DNA of 64,000 nucleotides from a virus: positions 3,189-67,188 of IMG/VR virus record IMGVR_UViG_3300024520_000062. The stretch is one strand, 5' to 3'. A program made the translations under genes and the position numbers. Shown in pieces: positions 39,244-57,475 of the stretch. Position 1 is the first letter of the stretch. Each line of letters starts with the position of its first letter. Under the pieces are notes generated by a model. The model saw nothing but the letters and a program-made list of their open reading frames with translations. It was not told where the DNA came from and did no database searches.

Positions 39244-39508
39244 AACTTCTTCTCTTCTACGGGGGCGCTGGCGCCGTGGGTTACCTCGTCGGTGGCCCGT
39301 GGTGGAAGTCGATACTAGCCGGGGCTCTCTGGGCCGTCATGTTTCTGGCGGCGGAGGCCCTCTTCTCCAAACCCAAGGCCAAGATCGTGGTGATGCACGG
39401 CACCGACATCGAGCCGGGCGACACCATCTGTATCCGCGACCGGGAGTACACGGTGCTCGCCTCCGAGGGCGACATCATCACCATCGACAGGCCGCTTGAA
39501 CCTGAGGC

Positions 39509-39558
39509 TTGACAGAATATGTACCTTTGATTAGGTTGCTTGGTAGATGGTTACTGGC
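39509..39558 (+). promoter_or_regulatory. Cassette promoter + leader motif
   Basis: TTGACA-17-TAGGTT, then GGTTACTGGC at 39549. Confidence 0.8.
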
Positions 39559-40919
39559 TTAGAGAGGAGCAGGGAATGAGCGTAGAGATCATGAAGGACG
39601 AGCGGAGTGGGCAGCAGATCATGTTCTGCAACACCAGCGACTGGGCCTTCGGCCCCGTCTTCTCCGACGACGAGAGTGCCGAGGGGTTCATCGCATGGCT
39701 GCACGTTGACCCGCGCTCTCTAGATGAGGCCGAGTTGTCGCGCAAGGTGGCCGATTGGCGGGCGGCGAAGCCCCGGTGGAAGTGCGAAGACTGCGACACC
39801 AAGTTCAAGTCTCCCTTGGACGAGTGCCCCGAGTGCGGCGGGTCCGACATTTTCCCAATCGTTCCCAAGGAAGTATCGGACGACGTCTCTCGTAACATGA
39901 CTGGCGTCATGCTGGGCCAGCGGGGGCCACGCCGATGATCATCCAAGTCTCACGTCTGATTCTGCGAGCGAACACCGACCGCCTCATGGCCGACGTCGAG
40001 CAACACATCGTTTCGAACGCCGAGGATTCGGCTGAGTTCTACAACGTGAACTGGGACAAGGTGTCCGACTACATCAGCAACGTGACCGACGCCATCGGTG
40101 GCCTGCCGATAGACGAGCGAGGCAACACCGTGCTGTGGTCCGACCACCCGGTCGCCAAGCTCATGGAGATGGACGAGCCCTGCTACGATTGGTCCGACGT
40201 TCTGGACGAGTATCGCAACCGGGCCCGAAAAGAATTTTTGGATTTTCGAACCGAGTTTCTCCGTATGGTATCAGACAACGGACGTGAATTTGCGAGGTCT
40301 GTATGAACAAAGATGCTCAGAGTCTTCTCTTTGAGGCGGCGAGCGAGTTAAAGGCCGCAAGCCCTGCTGGTCCGTTCGAGATCGGCATGGCGATCACCAG
40401 CGCCGTCACCGCGCTCTGCCTCGCGCTCGAAGACATCCGAGCGCAGCTGGCTGTATCGGACAAGAAGATCGAAGTAACCAACCGGGATGGGAACAAGATT
40501 CTTCTTTCGTCTGACACTATTCAATCTGTCAAGCCGAGCATCATGGTCGTTGACACCGACGTGGTGCCTGACTGCAAGAAATCTTTTCCAGAGGCGGACG
40601 CCGGGGTGCATGACGGTTCGGTGATTTCGTTCAAGCGAGACGTAGATAACGTCTTGGCTCTTGAGACGGTCGAGGAGATCAAGGGGTTGATCAATGGGTG
40701 AACAGTACATGATTTGGTCGCACGAACATCGCATGTGGTGGCGACCGAACCACCAAGGGTACACGAAGAACGTCAAAGAGGCTGGCCTCTACGACGACGT
40801 GGCCGCATTGAGGATTCACGTCAACGCTGTGCCGCACGGCATCGAGGTCGCCGTGCCGGAAGTGACGGCCCGTCGTCATGGCACGAACGTCGTGTTCAAC
40901 GCTGACCCATGGCCGTCCA

Positions 40920-41666: not shown

Positions 41667-41782
41667 TTGACAGAATATGTGCCATTGATTACCTTGTGCC
41701 TAGCGTGAGGGGCGGGCCTTTGATTGGACTGCAAAGCCTTGACGGGGTTCGTCACTCATCGCACTGATGGTTACTGACTTAC
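41667..41782 (+). promoter_or_regulatory. Cassette promoter, structured leader and GGTTACTGAC motif
   Basis: TTGACA-17-TACCTT; hairpin 41705-41759; motif at 41769. Confidence 0.8.
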
Positions 41783-41801
41783 TTAACAGCAAGGGGGCAC
41801 G

Positions 41802-42305
41802 ATGTTTTCACTCGAGCAGGTACACGGCAACGGCGCGATCGTCCTGAAGGTGGAGCCGGGCACGATCCTCCGGCTGGCCGACGGGATGCGGTTGCGGCGC
41901 GGCACCAGCGGCTATCAGGTCACCTCAAACGGTGACGGCAAAGCCGTGATCTTCGCACTGGCTGGCGTCATCTGCACCGGACCACATCCTGACGCGAACA
42001 AGGCGTTCATCAGGGTAGAGTACAAGCAGCAGGTGATTGACCTCGACGGGACCGTCAGTGAGATCGTCCCCGACCACAACCGCAACGTGAAAGTGGCCCC
42101 GGTGAGACAGTTCGTCCGGTACGGCGAGGACACGACGCCTGCGGTGATGTTGTTCGACTACAGCGACATCGGTATGCCGAATCAGTGGAAGGTGTCACCA
42201 CACGGACCCGACCGGCCGGACGAGGACATGGATTGGTATGACAGCGAGGAAGAGGCGCAGGGCGCGGCGAATTTCTACGTCGCACAGATGGGAGGTACGT
42301 CGTGA
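41802..42305 (+). CDS. Hypothetical protein
   Basis: AAGGGGG RBS after the cassette motif. Confidence 0.65.
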   Translation: MFSLEQVHGNGAIVLKVEPGTILRLADGMRLRRGTSGYQVTSNGDGKAVIFALAGVICTGPHPDANKAFIRVEYKQQVIDLDGTVSEIVPDHNRNVKVAPVRQFVRYGEDTTPAVMLFDYSDIGMPNQWKVSPHGPDRPDEDMDWYDSEEEAQGAANFYVAQMGGTS

Positions 42306-42658
42306 CCGAGATCACCACTGGCCAGCTGGAGCAGCAAACTGTCCAGCACTATGGCAAGAACGAGAATGTCACTCAGCACATCGGGTTCCGTGTCCATTCG
42401 GACCACACGGTGTCATTCAGCGCCGTCGAATCGATCAAGCCATACGGCGAAGAGAGAGAGACTAAGCGTGTCAACACGTTTGCCGAGGTCAACGGGATGG
42501 AGGCACACTATGCTGTGGAGTTCGCGACTAAACTCCTCAAGGCTGCGATCATTGCCGAGGCCAAGGCGGACGAGGCCCGTAAGAACAAGGGCTGGGAGGA
42601 CACGATCACGGAAACGTCCGAGGTCGCTCGCTACGGCCGGGCGCACAAAACGAGTTAA
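42302..42658 (+). CDS. Hypothetical protein
   Basis: GGAGG RBS; GTGA overlap. Confidence 0.6.
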   Translation: MTEITTGQLEQQTVQHYGKNENVTQHIGFRVHSDHTVSFSAVESIKPYGEERETKRVNTFAEVNGMEAHYAVEFATKLLKAAIIAEAKADEARKNKGWEDTITETSEVARYGRAHKTS

Positions 42659-42679
42659 AGGTTCGAGTCAAAGTCCTGA

Positions 42680-42750
42680 GAGGTTGGGGGGCCAGAGCAA
42701 GCGCACTGGGAATGGGTGGGTTCGATTCCCCCCTCTGGTTCCTCAACTTC
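42680..42750 (+). ncRNA. tRNA-like mini-RNA 1 (18-bp stem + T arm)
   Basis: GAGGTTGGGGGGCCAGAG pairs with CTCTGGTTCCTCAACTTC; T arm GTGGG-TTCGATT-CCCCC (one mismatch). Confidence 0.6.
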
Positions 42751-42757
42751 TCCTCCC

Positions 42758-42806
42758 GGGCCGGTACACGCGACTGGGAAGGCGGGTTCGATTCCCGTCC
42801 GGTCCA
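42758..42806 (+). ncRNA. tRNA-like mini-RNA 2 (acceptor + T arm, no anticodon arm)
   Basis: GGGCCGG/CCGGTCC-A acceptor with G3.U70; GCGGG-TTCGATT-CCCGT T arm. Confidence 0.7.
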
Positions 42807-42823
42807 CTCGAGGAAATTGGGGG

Positions 42824-42878
42824 TTGCGCTGGTATGCACCATTGATTACCTTGTGTGTAGCAACGGTTACTGACTCAA
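42824..42878 (+). promoter_or_regulatory. Cassette promoter + leader motif
   Basis: TTGCGC-17-TACCTT; GGTTACTGACTCA at 42865. Confidence 0.75.
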
Positions 42879-42895
42879 CACTCGAGGGGGACACG

Positions 42896-43114
42896 ATGGC
42901 ACTGGTACAATTGGACTACGAACGGTTGCAGGCCGAGGACGTCAGGGGCGTTACGGTGAACACGCTGAATCACCTCTGGAGAAGTTGTCACAATCGGATC
43001 TTCCATGTCAGCGGAACCTCCGAATCGATTCGACAGGCAAGGCAGGACATCGACGTGGTCAACGCCGAGTTCAGCCGGCGGTACGCAGCAGGGATGAGCA
43101 CCGTAGTAGTGTAA
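42896..43114 (+). CDS. Hypothetical protein
   Basis: GAGGGGG RBS after the cassette motif. Confidence 0.6.
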   Translation: MALVQLDYERLQAEDVRGVTVNTLNHLWRSCHNRIFHVSGTSESIRQARQDIDVVNAEFSRRYAAGMSTVVV

Positions 43115-43121
43115 GTAAGGA

Positions 43122-43192
43122 GGGGGCGAAGGTGACTGACCGCGCGACTGAGTAGTCCTCGCCCGGTGTGGGTTCGATTCCCACCGCTTCCA
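43122..43192 (+). ncRNA. tRNA-like mini-RNA 3 (resembles the tmRNA tRNA-like domain)
   Basis: GGGGGCG/CGCTTCC-A acceptor with G3.U70; stemless D-like loop; capped helix; GTGGG-TTCGATT-CCCAC T arm. Confidence 0.7.
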
Positions 43193-43322
43193 TTAGCAGC
43201 AGGTGGTTCATTGTTGGTGGCTAGGGGACTTTCCATCAGGGCTCCCATACGGGAGATTCCGGTGCCTCGTAGACTGAGAAAGCAGTCGTGTCACCAGCAG
43301 TCAACCACCTCCAAAATTGGCC

Positions 43323-43376
43323 CTTGACAAGATATGCACTATTGATTAGGTTGGTTGCAGATGGTTACTGACTCAC
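43323..43376 (+). promoter_or_regulatory. Cassette promoter + leader motif (54-bp direct repeat, copy 1)
   Basis: CTTGACAAGATATGCACTATTGATTAGGTTGGTTGCAGATGGTTACTGACTCAC, identical to 44110-44163. Confidence 0.9.
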
Positions 43377-43395
43377 TGTAGCAAAGGGGAACACA

Positions 43396-43635
43396 ATGAA
43401 GATCAAGATCCACTGGCTGTTCACGGGCGAGCCCGGTGATGCGACAGAGGGCGGTTACTGGGAGAGCATGGAAGGTCGCTTCACGATTTCACCGAATTTC
43501 CGTAGCACGGTGTACCCCGATTCGTATTCGGTACGGGACAACCTGAAGGATCAGGATTATCGGTATCAGGACACGGTGCGGGAGTGCAAGGAATGGGCAA
43601 CCAGTTTGATCGAGCGGGAACAGCAGGGCAGGTAG
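43396..43635 (+). CDS. Hypothetical protein
   Basis: Cassette motif + AAGGGG RBS. Confidence 0.65.
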   Translation: MKIKIHWLFTGEPGDATEGGYWESMEGRFTISPNFRSTVYPDSYSVRDNLKDQDYRYQDTVRECKEWATSLIEREQQGR

Positions 43636-43900: not shown

Positions 43901-44101
43901 ATGCCGATCCACCTCACCGCCTTCATCAACGAGGCCAAGACCTTCGACAGCATCGACGCCGTCCAAGGCTATCGCATCCGGCACCGCATCAGCTACGCCT
44001 TCGATGCCGCACTAGGGACCGACGACCTGTACCGCCTGTTCCGCCCGGCGACCAACCCGGTAGACAATTACCCCGGTCACTACATCGTCAAAGGTGGCTG
44101 A
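43901..44101 (+). CDS. Hypothetical protein
   Basis: Motif at 43866 + AAGGGG RBS. Confidence 0.6.
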   Translation: MPIHLTAFINEAKTFDSIDAVQGYRIRHRISYAFDAALGTDDLYRLFRPATNPVDNYPGHYIVKGG

Positions 44102-44109
44102 AGAGAACA

Positions 44110-44163
44110 CTTGACAAGATATGCACTATTGATTAGGTTGGTTGCAGATGGTTACTGACTCAC
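44110..44163 (+). promoter_or_regulatory. Cassette promoter + leader motif (54-bp direct repeat, copy 2)
   Basis: Identical to 43323-43376. Confidence 0.9.
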
Positions 44164-44184
44164 AACAAAGTAAAGGGGGCAAGA

Positions 44185-44388
44185 ATGGTACTGATGGAGA
44201 TCGTGGTGCGGCTCGAGGTTCCCTCTGGGCTGATCACCGATGAGCAGGCCAACGAGGCCGATGACGCGCTCACTGAACTCAACCTGAGTGATGTGGTGTA
44301 TCAGACGGTGCGGTCGGCGGTGAACACACGACGTGGCCTCGAGAACGTGCTGGTCAACGTGTCCAGCGTGGACGAGGGGGGCTTCTAA
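44185..44388 (+). CDS. Hypothetical protein
   Basis: Cassette + AAGGGGG RBS. Confidence 0.6.
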   Translation: MVLMEIVVRLEVPSGLITDEQANEADDALTELNLSDVVYQTVRSAVNTRRGLENVLVNVSSVDEGGF

Positions 44389-44801
44389 TGAGCGTACTCC
44401 AACTTGGCCTCAGCGATCAGGCGTGGGCCGTGGCGCACTTGGTCGTCCCTCGCATCGAGGAAGCGATGACGGAGTGGGACGAGCCGGGTCTGGCGATCAC
44501 GGAGTTCCTAATCCGGCCGTGGTCTAACGGCAGGGAGAAGGGGCTGACCTTCATGCGGCGCCGGCCCGGCTACACTCAGGCACTGGCGGTGTTCCAGCAT
44601 CGGATCAGCGACAGCATCATCGTTTGGGAATTCAAACTGCCGAGCCACTTCTGGGAGGACGTGGTGCGGCCGGAAGATCTCGAGGAAGGCGTGGCGGACC
44701 AGCAGTACCGCAACCCGGCCCTCGAGGCAACGTGGGGCAACATCGGACAAGCGGCGGAGTACATCATGCGGACGCTGGCGCCGGGAGAGATCTATATCTG
44801 A
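44388..44801 (+). CDS. Hypothetical protein
   Basis: TAATG coupling; GAGGGG RBS. Confidence 0.6.
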   Translation: MSVLQLGLSDQAWAVAHLVVPRIEEAMTEWDEPGLAITEFLIRPWSNGREKGLTFMRRRPGYTQALAVFQHRISDSIIVWEFKLPSHFWEDVVRPEDLEEGVADQQYRNPALEATWGNIGQAAEYIMRTLAPGEIYI

Positions 44802-44805
44802 GGGG

Positions 44806-44860
44806 TTGACAGGATATCAACCATTGATTACCTTGTATCCAGCAACGGTTACTGACTTAC
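44806..44860 (+). promoter_or_regulatory. Cassette promoter + leader motif
   Basis: TTGACA-17-TACCTT; GGTTACTGACTTAC at 44847. Confidence 0.85.
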
Positions 44861-44880
44861 TACGAAGCAAGGGGGACACA

Positions 44881-45351
44881 ATGGGCATGGCACAACAGAT
44901 ACGGCTCGAGGCGGAGATGGACATCATCGAGGCACTGACCCCGCCGGCCGACTGGGACAACCAGAGCGAGACGGCCTTCAACAAGCAGGCCCGGTTCATG
45001 GGCGCCGTTGTCGGTCGCATGGCGACTAGGTCAGACGCTCGAGAACGGAAGAACGCGCTGGCGCGGTTGATGAAGCGGGGCGAGGTGGTGTCGTGGCGCA
45101 ACTACGGCAAGCGTAGTAACTACGCACTGGCCGAAGAGAACGCCCGCGCTCGTCAGGTGATCAGGCGGCGCGTCCGGCGAGAGTACGAAGAGTCGCGCGA
45201 TCAACAGGTCGAGGCGCTGGCACTGGCGACGAACCTCAACGATAGAGCGGGCGAGATCGTCAAGGCGCTCCATAAGGCCGGCTACGCCATCGTGCCGCGC
45301 GACAACATCCGGCACACGCAGTACTACCTCCCGAGGAGGGATGAGGCGTAA
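44881..45351 (+). CDS. Hypothetical basic protein
   Basis: AAGGGGG RBS; ATG at 44881. Confidence 0.65.
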   Translation: MGMAQQIRLEAEMDIIEALTPPADWDNQSETAFNKQARFMGAVVGRMATRSDARERKNALARLMKRGEVVSWRNYGKRSNYALAEENARARQVIRRRVRREYEESRDQQVEALALATNLNDRAGEIVKALHKAGYAIVPRDNIRHTQYYLPRRDEA

Positions 45352-45466
45352 GGCACACGACGGTCGGCCTGAGTCACCGATCGTCTCCCCCGGGGCCAGT
45401 GGCGGAACATGGCGCTGGTCCCAAGGCGCCTCAGCTGGGGCGCCAGACTCGAGCAGGATTGGAGGC

Positions 45467-45519
45467 TTGACAGGATATGTGTAGTTGATTAGGTTAGTCG
45501 TAGATGGTTACTGACTCAA
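45467..45519 (+). promoter_or_regulatory. Cassette promoter + leader motif
   Basis: TTGACA-17-TAGGTT; GGTTACTGACTCA at 45506. Confidence 0.85.
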
Positions 45520-45536
45520 CACTCGAGGGGGACAAA

Positions 45537-45758
45537 ATGAGATACTACATGACGGTCAACAACGACGCGATCGAAGTGTCCGACATCGACACCAACAAAG
45601 TGCTGGCGCGGATCACCACGGTCGAAGAGTACAACGCATTCATCGTCTTCCGCCGGCCGGACTACTTCATGTGCTCGAGTTCGCTCGACTTCCCCGAGGA
45701 CAGCACGAACGATCAAGACATCATCGCGCTGTGCCGGTCGCTGAGAGAGAGGGGTTGA
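45537..45758 (+). CDS. Hypothetical protein
   Basis: GAGGGGG RBS. Confidence 0.6.
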   Translation: MRYYMTVNNDAIEVSDIDTNKVLARITTVEEYNAFIVFRRPDYFMCSSSLDFPEDSTNDQDIIALCRSLRERG

Positions 45759-46793
45759 CCAATGAGATACGCTGAATGGACACGCCACAAGGCGCTGGCC
45801 CGAGGTTTCCCCAGTCATGAGGACGCGATCAAGTACGGCCGGGGGCTGGGTAACATCATCGGCCACAGCTGGCGCGTGGAGCCACGGCGCAACGTGGACG
45901 TCCAGACCGGCATCGGCCGGCAGACGTTCATCATTCATAACTACGGCACGCCGGTGTCGCTGTACCTCGAGTGCGTCACCACCGAGCCGGCCGAGGTCGA
46001 GCCCGACGAGCCCGAGTGGGCCGACGTCGAGGCCGACCAGCTGGCGCCGGGGGACTGATGACCACGCAAACCAAGCCGGCACGCGACAAGACTCGAGTGT
46101 ACCTCGAGTACTGGGGCAAGCAGATGCGCGCCGGCGTGCGGTGGTGGAGCATCACGGTAGAGTGGTGGGGCGAGAATCACCACACGGGCCCGCAGTGGTG
46201 CGGCCAGTGCTTCTGTGTGACGAGTGAAGAGATCGCCCGGCGGTGGCCGGACGCGATCGAAACGTGGGAGGCTTGATGGCAGCGGATCAAGTGGCGATCA
46301 CCTGTCCCGACTGCGCGACGAGCTACGCCATCGAGCGGTGGATATACGACAACATCACGTCCGTCTACTGCCCGACCTGTGGCAGGGACATCCTGCTGCC
46401 ACTGGGCAAGCGGATCGAGGAATCGAGGAAGTCTGATGGCTGATCGAGAAATGACCGAGGCGGAGTTCGAGGCACTGAAACGCAAGTGCTTCAATCTGGG
46501 GATGCAGGTCGGCGAGAGTGAGGGCCTACTGCAGGCGAGCATGATTGTCAGTGAGGTGCTGACTGAGCAGGTCGGCGGGCTGGGCGGCGGACGCCTCGCC
46601 ACTGAGGTGGCCCGCCGGATACAGGAGCGGAGTCAGGCGGTGCAGACGCTGACGATGCTCTGAGGATCGCGTGTAACGAACGATCGCGCGATCGCGCGAC
46701 TCGATGGTTGCCGGCGTTGTTCGTGTCGAGTTAAAGGCGACCTCGAGTTAAAGGCGAGTTAAACCCATCCGAGTTAAACCCGAGTCAAAGTCC

Positions 46794-47043
46794 TGTGGCG
46801 TTCCCACCACACTTTTATGTTGCGCCGACGCCACGGCAAAACGCGAGGGTGTCGCGCCGCCGCCACGGTATTTTGCGAAGTTGTTGCGTGAGCACCACAT
46901 ATGGCGTCGATGCAACATTGTCGCATTCTGCCGTGGCGCTCGAGCCACACTTTCGCATTTCGCCGTGGGATCGACGCCACACCGATGTTGCGTCGGCGCT
47001 ACGTTGCGTCTCCGCCACATAGCCCTGTGGTTTCGACGCTACA
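46794..47043. repeat. Array of ten 18-bp pseudo-palindromes (consensus YGTKGCG-N4-CGCCACA)
   Basis: Copies start at 46794, 46818, 46850, 46882, 46900, 46932, 46964, 46986, 47002 and 47026. Confidence 0.85.
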
Positions 47044-47070
47044 TGTGGTGCCGGCGCGGCACTTTCCCTG

Positions 47071-47167
47071 CACAAGATTCGTGCCACATCTATGGCACAT
47101 ACCTTGCAATAGCCAGAGCAAGTTCTATGCCATAGTTAAGATATGCATAGTTGGCACGCCTCTTGCT
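47071..47167. promoter_or_regulatory. Cluster of four sigma54 (-24/-12)-type sites in alternating orientation
   Basis: (-)TGGCACGAATCTTGTG 47071-86; (+)TGGCACATACCTTGCA 47093-108; (-)TGGCATAGAACTTGCT 47117-32; (+)TGGCACGCCTCTTGCT 47152-67. Consensus is TGGCAC-N5-TTGC. Confidence 0.75.
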
Positions 47168-47441
47168 TCGCGCGTTCATTATATACAGCAGGCGCCAGCC
47201 GGCGCCAGCAGGCGCCAGCCGGAAACCGCCTAGGCAATGGCTTTGCGGCTGGTATACCCCTAGAACGCCCGAGGTTGCCGTCTAACGGATGTTTATGTCC
47301 TACCCATACTAGTACACCAACCTCCTGCCGTTCGGACAAGTCGTTACAGGGCAATGACTTACAAGGCCGTATTTTCGGGACATAGTATATTTGTGACCCA
47401 TAACCCGAAATAGCCTATACCTAGGCCTTGAAACTCAGGTA

Positions 47442-47470
47442 TTGCGTTATCAGCCATGGATAGTTAACTT
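47442..47470 (+). promoter_or_regulatory. Sigma70-type promoter upstream of the ArdC island
   Basis: TTGCGT-17-TAACTT. Confidence 0.5.
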
Positions 47471-47650
47471 ATTCCCTCACAGAATAGGCCCGGTCCCATG
47501 GTGGTGAAACACCGACAGCCGCGCCGCTTGAAACGCCCCCCGACTCTCCGCCTCACTCGAGGCAATGTTTCATCCTTCGTTCATTATATGCCGGCGCCGC
47601 TTGCCGGCTGTGCCCTAGCGTTAGCCGCTAAGGCGAAAGGCTACTGACCT

Positions 47651-47914
47651 ATGACTGACTACGACAGCAACGGCGCTCCCGAGTATTGCTACCCTGACGG
47701 TACCGGCGCGCCGCTCGATTACTTCGGCCAGCGAAACGACTTCACGCTGATGCCGGCAGAACGGGACCACCCATGCTACGCGCTGACGGTTGGACCGCGC
47801 GGTACCATAGAAACAATGGATTGGGAAACGCGCGGCACTGGCTCGCAAGCAATGCTTTCTCTTATCGGCTCCCTGATGCGCAACGGCACTATCCCAAACG
47901 GCTGGGACTTCTAA
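47651..47914 (+). CDS. Hypothetical protein
   Basis: AAGGCTACTGAC variant motif just before the ATG. Confidence 0.55.
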   Translation: MTDYDSNGAPEYCYPDGTGAPLDYFGQRNDFTLMPAERDHPCYALTVGPRGTIETMDWETRGTGSQAMLSLIGSLMRNGTIPNGWDF

Positions 47915-47940
47915 ACTCACTACACTCGAGGGCGCCTATC

Positions 47941-48825
47941 ATGGCTACTGTTTACGAGATCATCACCGACAGAATTATTGCAGCAATCGAGACTGACGGC
48001 ACGCTACCATGGCACAAGCCATGGCGCGCCGGCACAGCGGCGCCGGCCAACTTGAAAAGCGGCAAGGCGTACCGAGGGATAAACGTCTTCCTGCTGGGAA
48101 TGCTTGGCTACTCCTCGCCTTACTTCGTTTCCTACAAGCAAGCGAAGACGTTAGGCGGTCAGGTTCGGAAAGGCGAGAAAGGTTCGCCCGTTGTCTTCTG
48201 GCTGTGGCCCGATGAAAAGAAAAAGGCCGCAGCAGCCGCAAAGGGAAAGCAGGCCTTCCCCATTATGCGCTACTACACAGTGTTCAATGTCAGCCAGTGC
48301 GACGGCATAAGCCACAAGCGGCTGACGGAATGGCAAGCGGCTGAAGATGCTGCAGCCGGTCAGACCCATGATGCCATCGAATCAGCAGCCGCAATAGCAG
48401 CCGGCTGGGAAGACGGCTGCAAAGTAGAACATGGCAAGAGTCAGGCGTATTACTCGCCATCGGCTGACGCTATCGGAATGCCGAACCTTGACGCATTCGA
48501 AACGGCGCCGGCGTACTATTGCACGCTCTTCCATGAGATGGTACACGCTACCGGCCACAGCAGCCGGCTTGACAGGTTCCCAGCCGACAGCGGCGCACAG
48601 CCGTTCGGGTCGGAATCATATTCGCAGGAAGAATTGACTGCAGAGATGGGCGCCAGTTTCCTAGCAGCAGAAGGCGGCTTGCCGCTTGATAGCTTCATCG
48701 ATCAGTCAGCCGCCTACGTAGCCAACTGGCTGCAACGGTTGAAAGGCGACAGCAAGTTGGTAGTAACAGCAGCGGCGCGCGCACAGAAGGCCGCTGATCT
48801 CGTACTGGGTCGCACGTTTGAATAA
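47941..48825 (+). CDS. ardC: ArdC-family antirestriction protein (DUF1738 + zincin-like domain)
   Basis: YEIITDRII, PWHKPW, YRGIN, GGQVRKGEKG, YYTVFN, TLFHEMVHATGH, EELTAEMGA, SAAYVANWL. Confidence 0.92.
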   Translation: MATVYEIITDRIIAAIETDGTLPWHKPWRAGTAAPANLKSGKAYRGINVFLLGMLGYSSPYFVSYKQAKTLGGQVRKGEKGSPVVFWLWPDEKKKAAAAAKGKQAFPIMRYYTVFNVSQCDGISHKRLTEWQAAEDAAAGQTHDAIESAAAIAAGWEDGCKVEHGKSQAYYSPSADAIGMPNLDAFETAPAYYCTLFHEMVHATGHSSRLDRFPADSGAQPFGSESYSQEELTAEMGASFLAAEGGLPLDSFIDQSAAYVANWLQRLKGDSKLVVTAAARAQKAADLVLGRTFE

Positions 48826-49244
48826 TCTTCACCATGGGCGCGCCGGCAACGGCGCGCCGGGAGTTCCTACCGTGTCTGTTCCTGTCTTCGCGCTGTTCAT
48901 TGTTCTACTGGTATGTTTTGCCGCTTGCGTTATCGCCTTAGCTATTCGCGACTGACTCACTCAAGAAAACGGCGCGCCATGATGCGCGCCGGAAAGGTTA
49001 CTTGACTCATGTTTTCAATCGCCCTGACTCTCGCTGCTGCTGCTTTCTTCCACATGCTTCGGACTGTCATCGTGCTGGCTGATGACCGGCGCATCGCGCG
49101 AGCCGCGCGCCCTGCTGGCCGTTGCCTGACTCGCGCCGTCCGTCCCGCTGGCAGGATTAGCCGGCGCGCCGTTTCTAGCCTGACCGGTACCTTTCATACG
49201 GTCGAGCCGTTCAAGCCATTCGCACGACCGCTGCAGTCGTTCTA

Positions 49245-49946
49245 ATGTCAAACGACAACAGCGTGATTGCATACGAGGGCGTCAGCCGGATTAACGGCGC
49301 GCCCATTGTCGTCATCATATCCGGCATACTCGAGCCATCGAGCAACGGCAAAACTGGCGACATGCTACAGGCGTATATCCTACGGTCCGATATACCGCCC
49401 CTCGAGGCGCTCGAGACTGGGAAAGATTCCGCCATTTGTGGTGGCTGTCCCTTTCGCAAGGCGCTGCGTGGTGGTTGTTATGTGAACGTAGGACAGGCGC
49501 CGCGCGGCATTTGGGAATGCTACAAGAACGGCGCCGGCTACGAGTATTGCACTGACCCGGCTTCTCTCTTCCGGCGTACTGATCGCATCAGGCTAGGCGC
49601 CTACGGTGACCCGGTAGCGGCGCCGCTCGAGATGTGGCAATCTCTCGTCAGTCATTCCGCTGGCTGGACTGGGTACACACATCAGTGGCGCGCGAAGATG
49701 GCGCGCGGCTTCTCTTCCATCCTGCAGGCATCGTGTGACAGTATAGCCGATCAGGAAGAGGCAACCGCGCGCGGCTGGGGAACCTTTCGAGTCTCCGCCT
49801 TAGGCGATCGCGACACAGTGCCCGGGGAATTCTACTGCCCAGCGCCGGCCATCGATTGCCGGGATTGCCTCCGTTGCGACGGCGCCAGCGGCGCGGCCGT
49901 ACTGATAGAGGCACATGGCAGCGGCGCCGGCAAGGTGGCGCCATGA
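49245..49946 (+). CDS. Cys-rich putative Fe-S protein (DUF7227-like, radical-SAM-related phage family)
   Basis: SSNGKTG, ICGGCP..CY, IRLGAYGDP, WTGYTHQW, ASCDS, CPA..CRDCLRC, EAHG. Confidence 0.65.
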   Translation: MSNDNSVIAYEGVSRINGAPIVVIISGILEPSSNGKTGDMLQAYILRSDIPPLEALETGKDSAICGGCPFRKALRGGCYVNVGQAPRGIWECYKNGAGYEYCTDPASLFRRTDRIRLGAYGDPVAAPLEMWQSLVSHSAGWTGYTHQWRAKMARGFSSILQASCDSIADQEEATARGWGTFRVSALGDRDTVPGEFYCPAPAIDCRDCLRCDGASGAAVLIEAHGSGAGKVAP

Positions 49947-50276
49947 CTCCCTACTATAGCCGCTGGCTCGGCATCCCTTACCCCGCTGCGCGACACATAG
50001 AACGGCGCGCGGCCCACACCACCACTACGGCGCCGGTGGAGGACCGGCGCCCAATACGCCCCCGTAACGCGCGACCCGCGCGCCGGGTCACAATCCTACC
50101 GGCGCCGCCACTACCGGCGCCGTGTGGCCAGCAAGGCGTCGAGCGGCGCGGGCTCGACCGACTGGCTATGTACTATGGGCCTTGATTAGTCGCGCGAGAT
50201 GCGGCGCCGGAATGGACCCGGCGCCGCCCGTGCGTCTCCACCTTTTTCGCGGCGCCGCTCGAGGACCGGCGCCGTC

Positions 50277-50314
50277 TGGCACGCCCCTTGCATGCTACAG
50301 CAAGGGGCGTGCCA
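50277..50314. promoter_or_regulatory. Inverted pair of sigma54-type sites
   Basis: TGGCACGCCCCTTGC-ATGCTACA-GCAAGGGGCGTGCCA: perfect 15-bp inverted repeat whose arms match the -24/-12 consensus. Confidence 0.75.
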
Positions 50315-50559
50315 CAGGCTCGAGATTGGACAAAGTCCAATCCCAGCATTTTTTTTGCGCGGAGCGGGGGGCCCAGCTGGGCGCAAAAATAGTGGAATTC
50401 TTGGATTGGGGGTTGCGAAAAATTTGAGTTTTTATGAGTCTTATGTATCTGGGATGACTCTCTCTTCTCTTCTTCTATTGGATATGTATAGTATATAAGG
50501 GTAGTGAGTAAGTTGTCTTTCCTTATATAGAGCGAAAAAGTTGCACCCCTAGATCATTT

Positions 50560-50736
50560 AGGGCAGCGCCTAGTTGCGAACCGGGTTGAGGCAAGGAATG
50601 TGCACCCCGTGGAAACCGCCCGGCCAGCAACGAAGAGGTGTGAGGGAAGGGCTGAGATAGCATACCTTACACGGAGGCGATTCGGCGGGATGGATGCCAG
50701 AAGTAGATCCCCTCGCCGGACGTAGTGCTGGCCCAC
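50560..50736 (+). ncRNA. Unassigned multi-stem structured RNA
   Basis: Nested pairs CGCCT/AGGCG, GTTGC/GCAAC, CCGGG/CCCGG, GTGTGAGG/CCTTACAC, CGGCG/CGCCG; no + strand ORF. Confidence 0.45.
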
Positions 50737-52625
50737 TTGGAGGGCTCGGTTGGAGTGCCGGGTTACCGTGTACGACCAGCTAGGGAACGGGGAACAGCCG
50801 TGGATATGACCCGAGGGCGGTGGCGTGTGGACGAGAAGAAGACGGAGGAGGTGGCACTGGCGACCGATCAGCCCCGAGCGTGGGAGGGGGCGGATGGGAG
50901 TTGCTTCAAGGGTGTGCCACGGACGGTGATGTCGTGGGACGAACGGTTACTGATGAACCTGTGGGCGATAGCGGAGGAGTTTGACGATGATGACGACTAA
51001 GCAGTTGGCTGAGATCGAACTACGAACGAACTCGGCCAAGCCGGGCCCATCGTCAAGCCGACTCAGAGACACGAGATCACGAGTCGGTACGGCCCGGAGA
51101 TAGGAGACGGATGATGTCAGAGGAGTTCGTAAGAATCGGAATGCACGGCACATGGTATCCCGAACACGGGACGCTGTACGTGGAAGGTGGCAAGGTGTCC
51201 TTGCCTCGAACGAAGCACCGGGACGCTGCCGTGTCTTTGGTGAAGCAGTACGAGGATAACGGGTTGCTACCTTGCTGTGACTGTGGGATCGTGATGACGA
51301 AGACGGATGTGGCCGGGAGTCGATTCGCAGGACGGTACTGCCCGATCTGTTGGGCGAAGTACCAGAAGGCGAACAGTCAGAAGTGCCTGATTTGCTCGGC
51401 CCCGAGATGGCGTTGTTGCTGCTGAACAGGAGGAAAGCCGATGTGGAGCAGAGGAGACGTAGCATACGTGACGCTGCCGGATGGAACGGTGTGCGAGGGA
51501 GTGATCTCCTGCATCTCCGACGCCCACCTGCCACAGGACAGGGTGACACGATGATGCCGGACTTCACATCGATGCCGCTGGGAGCCGTCACCGTGACGAA
51601 GCCGATGAGGCAAGCGATCCTGAGTCACTCAGATTTCGAGTGGGCGGTCAGGTCGCTGGCGCTCAGACTGACAACGTGGCTCCCGCCGCACAACGCGGGG
51701 CCGGAGTGGGTCACTCCCCCGAGGAAGATGGGGCAGAACCAATGACAACAATCCACGATGAGCTTTTCGGGTTGAATTTCTGCCCGGCGTGTGGCAAAGA
51801 GGCGAAGAAGGCGGTGGCGCACTGTGTGTCATGTGGCGTGGACTTCAGTTCGGTCCTGCGGGTGCTGGACGACTCGACGCCGGACCCGGTTGAGACAGGG
51901 ATACTGCGACTGCGGGAAGCGGAATACAAAATGTTGGAGGAGCGAGTGGAGACACTGGAAACGCGAATGCTGGGGCTACTAGCGAAACTTATCGAAATGG
52001 GAGTGGACATCCGATGAGTCAGAACGCGAAGGTGTTTCTTGGGTTGATGGCTATCGGGCTCCCGTTGTTGCTCATGGTGTTCTTCATGTTCTGGATAGAG
52101 TGGCGTCGATGGGAAGGTGGGACGCGGAGAAATCCGATGACCGATAAACCACGTCCGCCAAGGGTCGAATGCCCCGACTGCCATCTGAAATATGCCAACG
52201 ACAAAGTGTTGGCTATGCACCGGGAGCATTGTGACGGGCTTGACCGATCACTGAGAGAGTCCGCGGTGATCATCCCGCTCGGTGAGGAGGCCCACGTTCC
52301 GCTGTCGGTTGCTCGCAAGGCGCTGGAACGCGAACGACGGCTCGACTGCGAGGCGATGTGCGTGTTCTGCGCCGATGGCGACGTGCCGGAGCGGCATAAG
52401 CGCGGCTTCTGGATACACGGTGGGTACAGCATGGTCTGTCGCGCCAGCCCTATCCGTGAGAGGAAGACCGGATGACCGCCGCCACAGACAGGACTCTCCG
52501 CACCGCCTATGTGCGCTACGACCGCCTGACAGCGTGGGGCTGTACCCAGCGTGGGCGCCCGTTCGATGCGGGCCAGATGAACATGGCGTGGGAGATCTAC
52601 CAGTGGGAACTCGAGGAGGCGGGGT

Positions 52626-53216
52626 ATGGACGGATCGCCTGACAAGGACATCGGCAAGGCGATGGAGATCCGCACGGGCGCCGGCCGGCCGCGCAAGCTG
52701 ACGGAAGAGAAACTGGAAGAGGTCGTCGCCAAGGTACTGGAGGGGAACTTCGTCGCCACCGCCGCGCGGGCGTGTGGGATCAGCGAAGGCGGATTCCACC
52801 ACTGGATGAAGTTGGGCCGCGAAGTGTACGCGCGTCTCGAGAACTACGAGATAAACCGCCAACCACTGGTGGAGAGCGAGGTCATCTACATGGACTTCGC
52901 CGTGGGTGTGGAGACAGCACGGGCGATGGCCGAGACGGACATGGTCAACAAGGTCACGACGTCGGCGATCGAGGACTGGCGGGCGGCGGCGTGGTGGCTC
53001 GAGCGGGTCCACGCCGGCCGGTTCGCCCGGCAACAGCGACTCGAGACGACGGTCAAGGGTGACCCGGACAACCCGATACAGGTCGAGGTCAGCGCCAAGG
53101 ATACATTGGTCGAGCGGCTGACGGCGATAGCGGAGCGCCGGACGGCGGGCGAGGCACTGATGCCCCCGCGAGAGGACGATGTGACGATCGAGGATGCGGA
53201 GATAGTCGATGAGTGA
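52626..53216 (+). CDS. terS: Terminase small subunit
   Basis: GRPRKLT, HTH (ATAARACGISEGGFHHW), DWRAAAWWLER, C-terminal DNPIQVEV. Confidence 0.75.
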   Translation: MDGSPDKDIGKAMEIRTGAGRPRKLTEEKLEEVVAKVLEGNFVATAARACGISEGGFHHWMKLGREVYARLENYEINRQPLVESEVIYMDFAVGVETARAMAETDMVNKVTTSAIEDWRAAAWWLERVHAGRFARQQRLETTVKGDPDNPIQVEVSAKDTLVERLTAIAERRTAGEALMPPREDDVTIEDAEIVDE

Positions 53217-54378
53217 CAGGAAGCCCCCGGCGCTCTGCCCACACTGCGGCGGCTGGCATTCGACGCGCCCGGCGCCACCCGAGTACGAGTGGGACTTTCA
53301 CTGTATCTTTTGCGGACTGGCCTCAGACGGAGTAAAACATGGACGAATTCTGGATCGTGATGATCGATGGGACGCAGTTCGCGGTGGCCAACGACCAGAT
53401 GCCTCGCGAGTTGCAGCGAGTGTGGAGTCACGTCAACCCAGATCCAGATCAGATGGTTTGGATGACCGACCTTGATGGCAGCGACGTGGGGTTCAGGATG
53501 GGATCGTCCGTCGTAGTGTGGTGGAGCACCCCCGAGATCCGCGCCAGCAACGCGAAGATGGCGGCGGACTCAGAGCCAAAGGACTGGGAATGATCACTTG
53601 CGGACGGAAATGGCGAGGGATGCGGGCAGGCTGTGCGTTGAGCCTAGGGCACGACGGCGATTGCGACGGATTCCCGCCCATAGAGATGTCGCCGCTGGGT
53701 AAACTGTACGCGGAGGGAACGGCGCGGACGTTCCGGTGTACTTCAACCGGGCATGTCGAGATGGCAGCGTACTGGGTGCAGCCGGGCGACACAGTGGAGG
53801 TGCCGAGCGGCATGACGCTGCCCCGAGGTAAGATGGTGCCGGGCGTGGAATACCGGGTGGCGTCGTGATCGGCCCACCGCAAGACCCGAACGAGAAGTGC
53901 GCGTACTGCGGGCACACCCACGCCCAGCATGAATTGGGTGAGTGCGGGTGCCAGTTGGAATGTACGATGTGTACCTGTACCGACTTCACGTATCAGTTGG
54001 ACTGGCCGGGCTGGACGAGAATGACGCCGACAACGCCGAAGGAAGACGCGCACCGCGTGGCTCGCGACATGACACTATCAACGGATTGGCCCGAATGAAA
54101 AAGATGACGGCGGTACTGGCAGGGAACACTCTTCAGGCGGCGAGTTGGTTTAGGAATAAAGCCGAGAGAGAGACGGGCACGTTCGACTCGCTCCGTTTGG
54201 AGTTCCTCGACATGCAGGGCAATAGGTGGCGGTACGTGCCGACCGCCCACGCGGCGAGAGGTATCGACTGGACCGACATGAAGCTGATAGGGACGTGGGG
54301 TGAGCGCACCGACGAGGCGGCGCACGAACTGTACGACGTCGTGTACGACGCTTGCCGCCGGACGGAATTGCTGGCGAA

Positions 54379-54738
54379 GTGAGGGTATGGCTCCTACTGG
54401 CTCTACTGGGCTGCGGCCCGTCACAGCCACTACCCGAAGGCGCGGTCGCGATGGAGGCTCCGGCGTGGTACGCGGCGTGGTGGGAGCGGACGGAAGAGTG
54501 TTCGGGATTGACGGGGGACTTCGAAGCGATAGACTGGTACATCATACCGGGCCAGACTTTTGAGTTGGACGGCGCGGAGTGGGTGGGTCACTGGATACAG
54601 AACGTCGGCATAGTGATCGCCGGGTTGTACCGGAACCATGAGGTGGTGGTGCGGCACGAGATGCTGCATGAGTTACTGGGCGCCGAGGGGCACCCACCAG
54701 AGTTTGACGAATGTCGGTTAACGTGGGAGACACAATGA
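54379..54738 (+). CDS. Putative lipoprotein zinc metallopeptidase
   Basis: LLLALLGC lipobox and HEMLH zincin motif with a downstream His. Confidence 0.6.
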   Translation: MRVWLLLALLGCGPSQPLPEGAVAMEAPAWYAAWWERTEECSGLTGDFEAIDWYIIPGQTFELDGAEWVGHWIQNVGIVIAGLYRNHEVVVRHEMLHELLGAEGHPPEFDECRLTWETQ

Positions 54739-55224
54739 ATCACTGTAGGAAGTGCGACAGCGACTACGAGCAGCCGGGGACGTGCAACTGTTTCGCGGAG
54801 GAGGGCGCGGTCGTGGTGCATCACCACTACCACCACCACAGCCATCCGCTACCGTACAACAACTATCCGTACCAGTACCCGATCCACCCGGTCCCGATCT
54901 ATCCGTGGTACGGCGACATGACGATCACCTGTGATCCGGTGACTTACGGTTCGCAGACGATCACCAATACGGACGGCGAGGTGACCACGAACTCAGTGCC
55001 GTTGGTGAACAACCAGAACTTCGGCCCGATGGTGATCGAAGCGGCCCGGCAAGCGGTCGAGTACGACGAGACGCACTAGGACGGCGTTCGCACCACGGCC
55101 ACGCTGTGAAGCCTGAGTAGTGGGCAATAATCGGCGCGAGGGGTTGTGGGAGCCTAGCGTGGAATTGGATGGTAAGTGGGCCACGCGAACTGGGTACGGT
55201 CTGGCGGTGGGGGCCGTGCCCCAC

Positions 55225-55299
55225 AGGGACGTAGCGCAGACAGGTCAGCGCACCTGCTTTGGGAGCAGGGGGCCGTGGGTTCGAATCCCACCGTCCCTA
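55225..55299 (+). tRNA. tRNA-Pro(TGG)
   Basis: AGGGACG/CGTCCCT acceptor; CCTGC-TTTGGGA-GCAGG; GTGGG-TTCGAAT-CCCAC. Confidence 0.88.
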
Positions 55300-55303
55300 T
55301 GAA

Positions 55304-55387
55304 GGCCAGACCACGGTAGGGTCAGCGACGGCTGATTGCCCGTTCGACTCGGGCAGGGGAACGTGGGTTCGAATCCCACTCTGGCTG
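55304..55387 (+). ncRNA. tRNA-like RNA with two T-loops and no anticodon
   Basis: GGCCAGA/TCTGGCT stem; GTCAGC-GACG-GCTGAT; TGCCCG-TTCGACT-CGGGCA; GTGGG-TTCGAAT-CCCAC. Confidence 0.6.
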
Positions 55388-55956
55388 TATGAGTAAACTG
55401 GAAGAGTTGCGGGCTAAAGGAATCGTCTTTGACGACGACGATCTCGACGGTTTCTGGGTCAACATGAACGACACGTTCGGCTGGGCCTGCGCGGACGGCG
55501 AAGAGATCACAGAAGCAGAGGTAGATGAAGTACATGCCGTCTACTTCGGTGCCCCAGAGGGAACGGGGTGGCATGCAGTGACGCGGTGGGTGTGTGCCCG
55601 GCGCGGATACGAGCCATTCGATCTCTGGAAAGAGCGATTCGGATGGCCGGAACCCAAAGGAAAGGATGGTGTGCCATGACAAAGTGACCCCAACTAGGAG
55701 TCAGTCATGGCAGGCGAGAAGGCAAAGGGTAGCAAGAAGAACCGGAAGCACGGTCGTGGTGCCCGAAACGGTGTTCGTGCGCGGTACTGGTCGAGTCATC
55801 GACTGGAAAAGCGCAAGGTTAGGAATCTGATGCGGTGTTGTGGAATGACCCGTGCCGCTGCGGAGGCGCACTGGCGCGAGGTCCGAGTGAAGCGCATCAA
55901 GTAAAGGTTCCACCCCACTGTCGAAAAACCCATGGGGTTTCAGGTGGGGTGGTCAT

Positions 55957-56023
55957 CGCAGGGCCAGCGGTGGCACGGTGGGCCCATAACCCATCAAGCC
56001 GGGTTCGATTCCCGGCCCTGCTA
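55957..56023 (+). tRNA. Initiator-type tRNA-Met(CAT) with reduced D arm
   Basis: C1:U72 mismatch; GGG/CCC in the anticodon stem; loop CCCATAA; normal T arm; 67 nt. Confidence 0.7.
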
Positions 56024-56030
56024 TGTAAGC

Positions 56031-56123
56031 GGTGTCTGTGGTCGTAATTGGTAACGATCCCGCCCCAGACGAATGAATGTCGATAGATGGCGGTCATGCG
56101 GGTTCGAATCCCGTCAGGCACCC
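56031..56123 (+). tRNA. tRNA-like gene with a 24-nt expanded anticodon loop (identity undetermined)
   Basis: GGTGTCTG/CAGGCACC; D arm GTCG..CGAT; CCGCC/GGCGG closing CCAGACGAATGAATGTCGATAGAT; GCGGG-TTCGAAT-CCCGT. Confidence 0.65.
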
Positions 56124-56125
56124 AC

Positions 56126-56199
56126 GCTCCGGTGGCGAAATTGGCAAACGCGCCAGATTTAGGATCTGGAGACTCAGGGTTCGAATCCCTGCTGGAGCA
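56126..56199 (+). tRNA. tRNA-Leu(TAG), short variable loop
   Basis: GCTCCGG/CTGGAGC; CCAGA-TTTAGGA-TCTGG; CAGGG-TTCGAAT-CCCTG. Confidence 0.85.
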
Positions 56200-56200
56200 T

Positions 56201-56287
56201 GGCAGTGTGGCGGAGCGGCGAACGCGGCTGACTGTAGATCAGCTACCCGAGCGGTGAACACCTCAGGTTCGAGTCCTGACGCTGCCA
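56201..56287 (+). tRNA. tRNA-Tyr(GTA)
   Basis: GGCAGTG/CGCTGCC; GCTGA-CTGTAGA-TCAGC; long variable arm. Confidence 0.88.
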
Positions 56288-56289
56288 TC

Positions 56290-56364
56290 GCGTCCGTGGC
56301 GGAATTGGTATACGTGACCGCACTCAAAATGCGGAGGTTGCTGGTTCGAATCCAGCCGGGCGCA
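56290..56364 (+). tRNA. tRNA-Leu(CAA), short variable loop
   Basis: GCGTCCG/CGGGCGC; CCGCA-CTCAAAA-TGCGG; GCTGG-TTCGAAT-CCAGC. Confidence 0.85.
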
Positions 56365-57408: not shown

Positions 57409-57422
57409 GCTTCCTCCAAAAT

Positions 57423-57473
57423 GTGAGTCAGTAACCGTATATGAATAATACATAAGTGTACCACGAAAGTCAA
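57423..57473 (-). promoter_or_regulatory. Minus-strand promoter + GGTTACTGACTCAC motif
   Basis: On the minus strand: TTGACT-17-TATTAT, then GGTTACTGACTCAC (57436-57423). Confidence 0.8.
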
Positions 57474-57475
57474 GT

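Follow-up and report, generated by a model that had tools for sequence, protein, structure and literature searches.

An array of eleven dyad sites with mirror-phased geometry beside sigma-54-type elements in a siphophage-type genome

The subject of this report is an array of eleven degenerate 18-bp dyad sites, U1 to U11, in a siphophage-type genome known from the 67,188-bp linear IMG/VR virus record IMGVR_UViG_3300024520_000062. The window, the 64,000-bp stretch that was analysed, comprises bases 3189-67188 of that record, and positions given below are those of the window. Each site is TGT-N12-ACA-shaped, and the array lies beside sigma-54-type promoter elements and ahead of a cassette encoding an ArdC-like anti-restriction protein (Table 1). 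At glnAp2, according to the accessible text of PMC1865078, the main NtrC sites are centred at -108 and -140, 32 bp apart. The phage locus shares with this enhancer the placement of dyads upstream of a sigma-54-type promoter, with 32-bp steps and sites near -108/-146 and -126/-144, but it has eleven sites rather than two main ones, a different half-site, and mirrored triads that do not appear in that account; moreover, glnAp2 serves a cellular gene with a known activator. QseF (GlrR) acts through a trio of upstream activating sequences (UAS) whose consensus is TGTN12ACA, ahead of the sigma-54 promoter of glmY, which drives a non-coding RNA (accessible portion of PMC6075780). The phage dyads, upstream of sigma-54 motifs that are followed by a non-coding leader of ~470 nt, recall this arrangement; however, the outer triplets alone are common, eleven sites stand against three, and QseF is enterobacterial.

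The same outline is also recognised outside sigma-54 enhancers. In the excerpted text of PMC10890935, CrtJ/PpsR, an oligomeric repressor of marine roseobacters among others, binds 18-bp TGT-N12-ACA palindromes in tandem, as in the marine Dinoroseobacter shibae; unlike the phage sites, its sites overlap the -35/-10 boxes of sigma-70 promoters, four candidate motifs are given for the bchF promoter, and the inner sequence is not GGCG-rich. In P2-like phages the small zinc-finger activator Ogr works at late promoters through sites of consensus TGT-N12-ACA (PMC3931495, as far as its text is accessible), and the phage has an open reading frame (ORF) for a 55-aa zinc ribbon 350 bp upstream of the array. 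Ogr sites, in that source, occur once per sigma-70-dependent late promoter and are spread over the late region, whereas the phage array holds eleven at one locus. The Ogr-type pattern of a single site near -55 of each late promoter was not found in the phage, no sites lying outside the array locus, and the best 25 of the 49 Pfam matches for the zinc-ribbon ORF do not include Ogr_Delta. Phage YuA is said, in the accessible part of PMC10914365, to use sigma-54 besides sigma-70, and its record NC_010116 annotates '-24/-12 consensus' promoters. YuA resembles the phage studied here in being a siphophage with genes on one strand in a similar order; in contrast, its -24/-12 promoters lie in the structural region, its record has no annotated dyad array, and portal identity to the YuA group is ~32%. 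Set against such systems, the array is probably a variant of known operator, enhancer or iteron arrays, and a sigma-54 enhancer or operator is ranked ahead of a replication origin.

Geometry and statistics of the dyad array

The array lies in a non-coding gap of 987 bp (46664-47650), bounded by the stop codon of an ORF at 46436-46663 and the start of the ORF at 47651-47914. An earlier note on this DNA, made from the letters alone, had described ten 18-bp palindromes; all ten were recovered, together with an eleventh at 47044, just beyond the end assigned to the array there. The 22 half-sites give the consensus TGTGGCG(Y)C, in which information is highest at positions 1-3 and 5-7, and the whole site reads TGTGGCGYC/GRCGCCACA. 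Successive sites start 24, 32, 32, 18, 32, 32, 22, 16, 24 and 18 bp apart, four of these steps being exactly 32 bp. Within the core formed by U2-U4 and U5-U7, the mirror arrangement at 32 bp that the note had proposed for six sites is exact by coordinates (46818+46981 = 46850+46949 = 46882+46917, giving a centre of 46899.5), and the hexamer CATATG stands at the centre, where two sites abut. A repeat search returned 70-nt arms (46818-46887 and 46912-46981) that are 71% complementary, and Tandem Repeats Finder (TRF) independently reported a period of 32 at 46902-46982. The 14-bp spacers (GCAAAACGCGA and GTATTTTGCGA on the left, TCGCATTCTGC and TCGCATTTCGC on the right) carry a second, AAATGCGA-like motif, also proposed previously, in four copies, two per orientation, so that its direction flips at the mirror centre.

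At three or fewer mismatches, TGTKGCGNNNNCGCMACA is matched 26 times in the window and 11 times within 46794-47061; at two or fewer, eight of the nine matches in the window fall in the array. Shuffled sequence (100 shuffles) averaged 14.4 matches with a maximum of 25, none reaching the observed 26. Among 129 other loci used as a control (1,115,103 bp), there were at most three dyad matches per 300 bp compared with 11 in the array, and one three-mismatch match came from the initial 3,300 bp of the record, ahead of the window. The sites share 9-16 of 18 bases in pairwise comparison, so the observation that spacing is kept while sequence diverges holds within the array. The array is thus real and statistically unambiguous, with an unusual mirror-phased geometry.

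Neither coding nor pairing accounts for this conservation. ORFs that cross the array have a flat GC content at the first, second and third codon positions (GC1, GC2 and GC3, ~0.58-0.62) and translations rich in arginine, cysteine and histidine, whereas ten confident genes have a GC3 of 0.63-0.80 and a GC2 of 0.40-0.55; codon-position GC is not gene-like, and the region is non-coding. The RNA fold of 46790-47070 is strong (z = -7.8, with 0 of 200 shuffles folding as well) because one near-palindrome is repeated many times. Complementarity within sites (64/99) shows no excess over re-paired half-sites (65.7 +/- 2.8; P = 0.78), and mirror partners, complementary at 14, 13 and 12 of 18 positions as against 9-14 for non-partners, show no covariation. 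Mismatches between arms (8 G.T, 7 A.C, 10 other) have no wobble bias on either strand, dyad stems form 4-6 of 7 pairs, and strict 7-N4-7 palindromes are not enriched, with 4 per 300 bp in the array and up to 5 elsewhere. Selection is on the consensus half-site in both orientations, not on pairing. Since the consensus is kept without hairpin covariation or a coding signature, duplex sites for a two-fold-symmetric (dimeric) protein look likely, and in their three-turn spacing the sites look like those of a dimeric protein that would be bound on one helical face.

Sigma-54-type elements and the ArdC cassette

Four sigma-54-type -24/-12 elements, Pa to Pd, lie within ~100 bp to the right of the array in a cluster that begins 10-30 bp away from it, in agreement with the sigma-54 sites that had been placed beside the array before; Pd has 0 mismatches. 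In the window TGGCAYNNNNNTTGC is matched six times where 0.31 are expected, three of these at 47093-47166, and the strict form TGGCACGNNNNTTGCW has three perfect matches, at 47152 (Pd), 50277 (Pe) and, on the minus strand, 50299 (Pf). Pb and Pc form arms (47090-47107 and 47118-47135) that are 83% complementary. Among the bound E. coli sigma-54 sites in the accessible part of Table 1 of PMC4591121, prpB reads GTGGCACACCCCTTGCT and pspA has TTGTA at -12; Pf differs from this prpB site, bound in chromatin immunoprecipitation (ChIP), at 1 of 17 positions, and the -12 TTGT of Pa matches pspA. Relative to the predicted starts, dyad centres fall at about -108, -124 and -146 for Pb and at -126 and -144 for Pd, the range of the centres being -66 to -146 for Pb and -126 to -206 for Pd. 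As in a UAS, a predicted -24/-12 (GG...GC) promoter lies within ~70-200 bp of the sites (Pb, Pd), and at least two dyad sites of 16-18 bp, here eleven, could share one helical face.

The signals that serve other early genes are missing from this region. A unit composed of a sigma-70-like promoter, (c)TTGACA-N17-TAGGTT/TACCTT, followed by GGTTACTGACTCA and then by the ribosome-binding region AAGGGGAACA ahead of the ATG, occurs in about eight promoter-bearing copies; it has no copy between 45506 and 50945, and the plus strand of 46300-48000 and of 49900-50800 yielded no sigma-70-like promoter. Because such sites are missing there, the ArdC cassette needs other signals. The leader of ~470 nt after Pd is without a convincing ORF and folds no better than shuffles (47170-47650, z = -1.6). 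In Rfam, 45500-49000 gave two sub-threshold matches only (P11, 19.6 bits against 70, and isrG, 15.7 against 100), and at gathering score five tRNAs were found and no family for the leader. Across 46-50 kb the GC skew (0.012, -0.008) and AT skew (0.041, 0.002) are near zero, compared with ~0.08-0.16 in the flanks, and the ArdC gene has a lower GC3 (0.64), which suggests that the array and the ArdC cassette form a separately acquired module equipped with signals of its own.

A dyad cluster is paired with sigma-54 consensus matches at two places, which flank the ArdC cassette and have different dyads. At the second (hub 2, 50028-50314, within 49900-50725) the dyad has 6 strand-wise matches against 0.08 expected, and the dyads run directly into the Pe/Pf palindrome; hubs 1 and 2 cannot be aligned with each other. 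Hub 2 also includes the 100-bp segment that is richest in AT in the whole window (50430-50529, GC 0.32), ahead of the genes leading to terS. A weak hairpin followed by T8 at ~50322-50356 was noted by eye and was not called by the terminator scan. The 8-mer TAGTATAT has only two copies in 64 kb, one per hub: the copy at 47383 lies 231 bp downstream of Pd and 268 bp upstream of the next gene, and the copy at 50489 lies 212 bp downstream of Pe and 236 bp upstream of the gene that follows. It may be a shared -10-like element.

We therefore favour, at a probability of roughly 0.45, an enhancer or operator that controls the sigma-54-type promoters of the ArdC cassette. Each 18-bp dyad would take one dimer of a single DNA-binding protein, the 32-bp phasing would set three dimers per mirror arm on one helix face and so allow a higher-order oligomer, and the five further sites would carry the array toward the promoters. 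The oligomer would act on sigma-54 holoenzyme parked at the -24/-12 elements, and the cassette would stay silent until the activator fired; Pd, and perhaps Pb, would then transcribe the leader, the 87-aa ORF, the ArdC-like gene and the DUF7227-like gene. According to the accessible text of PMC4591121, sigma-54 requires its activator absolutely, and chance proximity of sigma-54 sites and sites for bacterial enhancer-binding proteins (bEBPs) is very unlikely. Since the holoenzyme is silent without an ATPase activator, the bound protein would set the timing of the cassette, by activation or by repression. Because the record contains no activator, that protein would be a host bEBP or a phage protein of an unrecognised kind. 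A more elaborate version, which we find doubtful, is a sigma-54 'super-enhancer' in which each mirror triad would take up a hexamer of a host bEBP that senses stress or nutrients, with the five other sites in support, so that a signalling ATPase of the host would switch on silent promoters bracketing the ArdC cassette; hub 2, through its own dyad, would be a second input, and at high copy the eleven sites would also drain the regulator.

The enhancer proposal had already been made in the earlier note. It is strengthened by the adjoining sigma-54 motifs, the spacing, the site shape and the second hub, and it is weakened by the absence of a bEBP domain, by convergent motifs and by the number of sites. 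At E<=1 the 67,188-bp record, estimated to be 84% complete, has no match to Sigma54_activat (PF00158), and Pfam names no activator among 61 ORFs. Described bEBP enhancers have 2-3 UAS, in the accessible parts of PMC6075780 and PMC1865078, against eleven sites here, and mirror symmetry is unnecessary for an enhancer. The array is unique in the record, where the dyad has no other strong copy: a position weight matrix (PWM) trained on the array sites themselves scores 12.8 bits at best outside and 15.9-22.5 inside. Two of the four hub-1 motifs (Pa and Pc) point leftward, into the array. The convergent, overlapping palindromes Pb/Pc and Pe/Pf are odd for promoters and could equally be hairpins or the sites of another dimer, and their palindromic arms make the sigma-54 matches non-independent. 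The shape TGT-N12-ACA fixes only six bases and is common to unrelated binders; it names no protein because CrtJ/PpsR and P2 Ogr sites share it. Finally, the annotated promoters of YuA itself do not fit the strict motif: TGGCAY-N5-TTGC is matched nowhere in the first 50 kb of that phage.

Competing explanations

Of the alternatives, a replication origin survives best, although we consider it unlikely. The array would then be an iteron field on which an initiator, either the 997-aa primase/SF3-type helicase or an unrecognised binder, would assemble head-to-head and melt an AT-richer flank, the adjacent promoters giving transcriptional activation. Repeated initiator sites, with a readily melted stretch alongside, are likewise found in lambda ori, the SV40 core origin and P4 ori/crr: the iterons of lambda ori are dyad-symmetric, P4 alpha binds repeated octamers in both orientations, and at SV40 and papillomavirus origins SF3 helicase initiators load symmetrically as double hexamers, which by analogy the mirror symmetry, the two abutting central sites and CATATG would suit. 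Since the phage encodes a helicase and a primase-helicase of its own, it needs an origin; its replication module (24.7-36.5 kb) holds no iteron-like array, and the array is the only one of its kind in the record. The flanks, too, are less GC-rich than the genome mean of 0.60 (0.48 at 46727-46791, 0.38 at 47100-47149 and 0.40 at 47374-47473), and the five tandem 11-bp-type repeats on the left recall those of a DNA unwinding element (DUE).

Unlike iteron or dyad origins, however, the array has no linked initiator, is far from the replication genes (the primase-helicase gene is 13.5 kb away), and has sigma-54 motifs, not a strong DUE, for neighbours. Family scans recognised no O/Rep-like initiator, and the flanks are only moderately AT-rich, the most AT-rich 100 bp sitting in hub 2 and not at the array. 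Cumulative GC skew, suggested earlier as a check for an origin, rises monotonically and flattens only over 46-50 kb, with no turn at the array, a weak test because all genes share one strand. Sigma-54 promoters would be odd for origin activation, and a single origin leaves unexplained why the dyad and sigma-54 layout occurs twice with two dyads; since this layout is seen twice, transcription control fits better. The enhancer and origin readings are not mutually exclusive, as transcription can activate origins.

It is improbable that the array is some other DNA-protein scaffold, be it a packaging site for the small terminase TerS, a partition centromere of a plasmid-prophage, or a pause or roadblock to DNA entry placed before the anti-restriction cassette. 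Centromeres and terminase sites typically take the form of arrays of phased repeats, as do sopC, parC, cosB and P1 pac, the phage does encode a TerS with a helix-turn-helix (HTH), and U1 followed by a T-run was scored terminator-like. Yet pac sites usually lie in or beside terS, which here is 5.6 kb from the array; no ParA/ParM/TubZ-type or ParB-type family was found among the 61 ORFs with Pfam or in other scans, nor an integrase among the 61 ORFs with Pfam, and nothing ties the array to genome ends, the record being a linear fragment without end repeats.

Still more improbable is an operator or decoy for a host TGT-N12-ACA regulator that acts without sigma-54, for example the CrtJ/PpsR repressor of a marine phototroph, which would imply a link to light or redox state or a titration of the regulator. 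The tandem binding in D. shibae (PMC10890935, accessible text), the presence of the phage DNA in seawater metagenomes and the YuA-like gene order, roseophage RDJLPhi1 being described as YuA-like in the accessible part of PMC3070671, are all compatible with it. The outer TGT/ACA triplets alone are common, however, and the phage sites have a strong inner GGCG/CGCC core; where PpsR sites, in the text cited above, overlap sigma-70 boxes, 46300-48000 has 0 sigma-70-like promoters. Nor is the dyad enriched in 401 sampled genomes of one phylum: at one mismatch or fewer, TGTGGCGNNNNCGCCACA was matched in 106 of them, no genome having more than 4 matches, and the reversed control gave as many or more (up to 10). 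We know of no CrtJ/PpsR operators in phages. A single-stranded structure or a relic like a repetitive extragenic palindrome (REP) or bacterial interspersed mosaic element (BIME), that is, a run of RNA or DNA hairpins that would stabilise or terminate an early transcript, is very improbable. It is favoured by the strong fold and by the terminator-like score of U1, but the fold is what a repeated near-palindrome gives automatically, the pairing tests described above (no covariation within sites or between mirror partners, no G.U bias, no enrichment of strict palindromes, incompletely paired stems) speak against it, and the many genomic copies expected of REP/BIME have no counterpart in the 401 genomes.

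Relatives and genome context

The phage is without close relatives. A blastn search with 46664-47772 against 50,697 phage records gave no match, and the array patterns had 0 matches in viral contigs, 0 in metagenome contigs and 0 in genome contigs; with a looser pattern of 15 bases there were at least 118 single matches attributable to chance, none of them clustered, and the promoter-leader pattern of the phage had 0 matches in viral contigs. With the ArdC protein as query, matches were found at 7 viral loci with 37-39% identity, at 10 genome loci, from mixed phyla, with 31-46%, and at 42 metagenome loci, where identity is 25-70% for the best segment and no more than 48% when most of the protein is covered; none of these loci contains a dyad cluster. 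A sigma-54-like match at one of the ArdC loci (L171) proved unrelated, and ArdC was rejected as a clue to the host, its best plasmid matches being to Hymenobacter (~47%). The major capsid protein has one relative (53%, on a 5.9-kb contig), the portal three (38-41%, on short contigs) and the primase none that the query found, and the 233-aa protein is spread over many unrelated phages. To cultured cyanophage, Stenotrophomonas, Xanthomonas and YuA-group siphophages the portal shows no more than 32.7% identity. Near-identical DNA was present in seawater metagenomes as low-depth contigs, matching pieces being found in all four runs examined, each from a different study; none of the runs in which the stretch is listed is recorded as RNA. 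One contig, at a depth of 3.3, carries two variants inside the array that may be errors, 46903 G>T, which falls in U5 at its degenerate fourth position, and a C>T change at 46924.

Three phage proteins were retained as leads to the binder (Table 1). The 156-aa protein has a 65% relative, P0125, on a 62,861-bp contig, which is absent from viral contigs. Its AF2 model is weak (pLDDT 62.6, 4-row alignment) and shows a helix-helix-helix-strand-strand core followed by a long helix; Foldseek against the PDB gave 0 matches at E<=0.001, and the matches listed (E 0.013-0.1, TMq 0.18-0.36) are mostly winged-helix regulators, those from the Atlas falling below the bar. Three more small CxxC...CxxC zinc-ribbon ORFs occur in 51111-52017 and 39540-39938, two of them just after hub 2 and before terS.

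Nearly all genes are on the plus strand, window GC is ~0.60, and there are six tRNA genes.

Table 1. Positions of the array, the neighbouring elements and other features in the window
Feature	Position	Strand	Remarks
Five direct CGAGTTAAA-type repeats	46727, 46744, 46755, 46770, 46781 (46727-46791)	+	partly 11-bp period (TRF); GC 0.48
Dyad array, U1-U11	46794-47061	.	268 bp; eleven degenerate 18-bp sites; direct reading, pattern scan
Site starts, U1-U11	46794, 46818, 46850, 46882, 46900, 46932, 46964, 46986, 47002, 47026, 47044		
Mirror-symmetric core	46818-46981		U2-U4 forward, U5-U7 reversed; 32-bp units; centre 46899/46900
Spacer motif, forward copies	46835-46846; 46867-46878	+	GGCAAAACGCGA; GGTATTTTGCGA
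Spacer motif, reversed copies	46921-46932; 46953-46964	-	TCGCATTCTGCC; TCGCATTTCGCC
Pa	47071-47087	-	GTGGCACGAATCTTGTG; sigma-54-like; points into array; -12 is TTGT
Pb	47092-47108	+	ATGGCACATACCTTGCA; sigma-54-like
Pc	47117-47133	-	ATGGCATAGAACTTGCT; sigma-54-like; convergent with Pb
Pd	47151-47167	+	TTGGCACGCCTCTTGCT; perfect TGGCACG-N4-TTGCW (TGGCACG-N4-TTGCT); points toward ArdC cassette
Three GGCGCC palindromes	47186-47222	+	10-bp period; just downstream of Pd; same hexamer forms hub 2 dyads
87-aa acidic ORF	47651-47914	+	no family match; first gene after gap
ArdC-like anti-restriction protein	47941-48825	+	ArdcN 1.5e-33; zincin-like metallopeptidase 5.6e-35; likely start ATG 47941
233-aa protein	49245-49946	+	large phage/metagenome family; DUF7227 matched by some relatives but not by the 233-aa protein
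Hub 2 dyads, CGGCGCCG-N9-CGGCGCC	50028, 50202, 50250 (50028-50274)		shorter-spaced pair at 50100/50115
Perfect 15-bp inverted repeat, Pe/Pf	50277-50314	+/-	Pe CTGGCACGCCCCTTGCA (+), Pf GTGGCACGCCCCTTGCT (-); both arms strict sigma-54 consensus
156-aa basic protein	44881-45351	+	weak candidate winged-helix DNA binder; 1.4 kb upstream of array; lead only
55-aa CxxC...CxxC zinc-ribbon ORF	46276-46443	+	Zn_ribbon_4 27.6 bits, below the 30.3-bit cut-off; generic zinc ribbons; lead only
XRE-type HTH protein	23845-24174		candidate binder; lead only
Promoter-leader units	22140-22215, 39480-39640, 41700-41830, 42800-42900, 43300-43400, 44090-44190, 44780-44890, 45440-45515		sigma-70-like promoter and leader
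Leader-only copies of early unit	33278, 43641, 43866		
Tape measure	1578-5654		
Helicase	27367-29223		
Primase/helicase	30281-33274		997 aa, SF3-type
RecE-like exonuclease	34458-35411		
Small terminase TerS	52626-53216		HTH; phrog_4102 3.1e-25; weak HTH_29
Large terminase	57476-58810		
Portal	58859-60289		
Major head protein	62006-62992		

Several observations were made in passing. The window's only copy of TTAA-N7-TTAA, at 46748, lies within the CGAGTTAAA-type repeats on the left flank of the array; its spacing resembles that of CtrA boxes. In 42650-43200 a version of the left-flank repeat recurs in two copies (CGAGTTAAAGGTTCGAGTCAAAGTCCTG; cf. 46770-46797) and is followed by three tRNA T-arm/acceptor-like fragments (GGTTCGATTCC...) that neither ARAGORN nor Rfam called as tRNAs. 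The early promoter-leader unit is reminiscent of the 'promoter requiring a phage cofactor' that the annotation of YuA gives repeatedly. A sigma-54-like match between head genes, TTGGCATGAATGTTGCT on the minus strand (61130-61146), may be chance or an antisense promoter. Between TerS and the large terminase (52626-57476) lie 4.3 kb in which small ORFs are accompanied by five tRNA genes (55225-56365). A non-coding stretch of 1.2 kb (21000-22212) separates the tail genes from the early genes; it contains a long inverted repeat with A/T runs at ~21083-21205, a tRNA called Tyr with the unusual anticodon ATA at 21704-21779, and several hundred bases with no ORF or Rfam match. The 1423-aa ORF at 16077-20348 has no PHROG match, and its inner part (18-20 kb), with a GC content of 0.715 and negative GC skew, is far from the genome mean.

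Phage transcription has nearly always been described in terms of sigma-70 promoters, phage RNA polymerases and phage sigma-like factors, and phage use of the activator-dependent sigma-54 pathway is sketchily documented, having been claimed for YuA. Were the array an origin instead, it would be a rare defined origin for the widespread but poorly studied SF3 primase-helicase replication module. If it is the sigma-54 enhancer or operator that we favour, it would offer a testable case of phage counter-defence wired to a host signalling ATPase.

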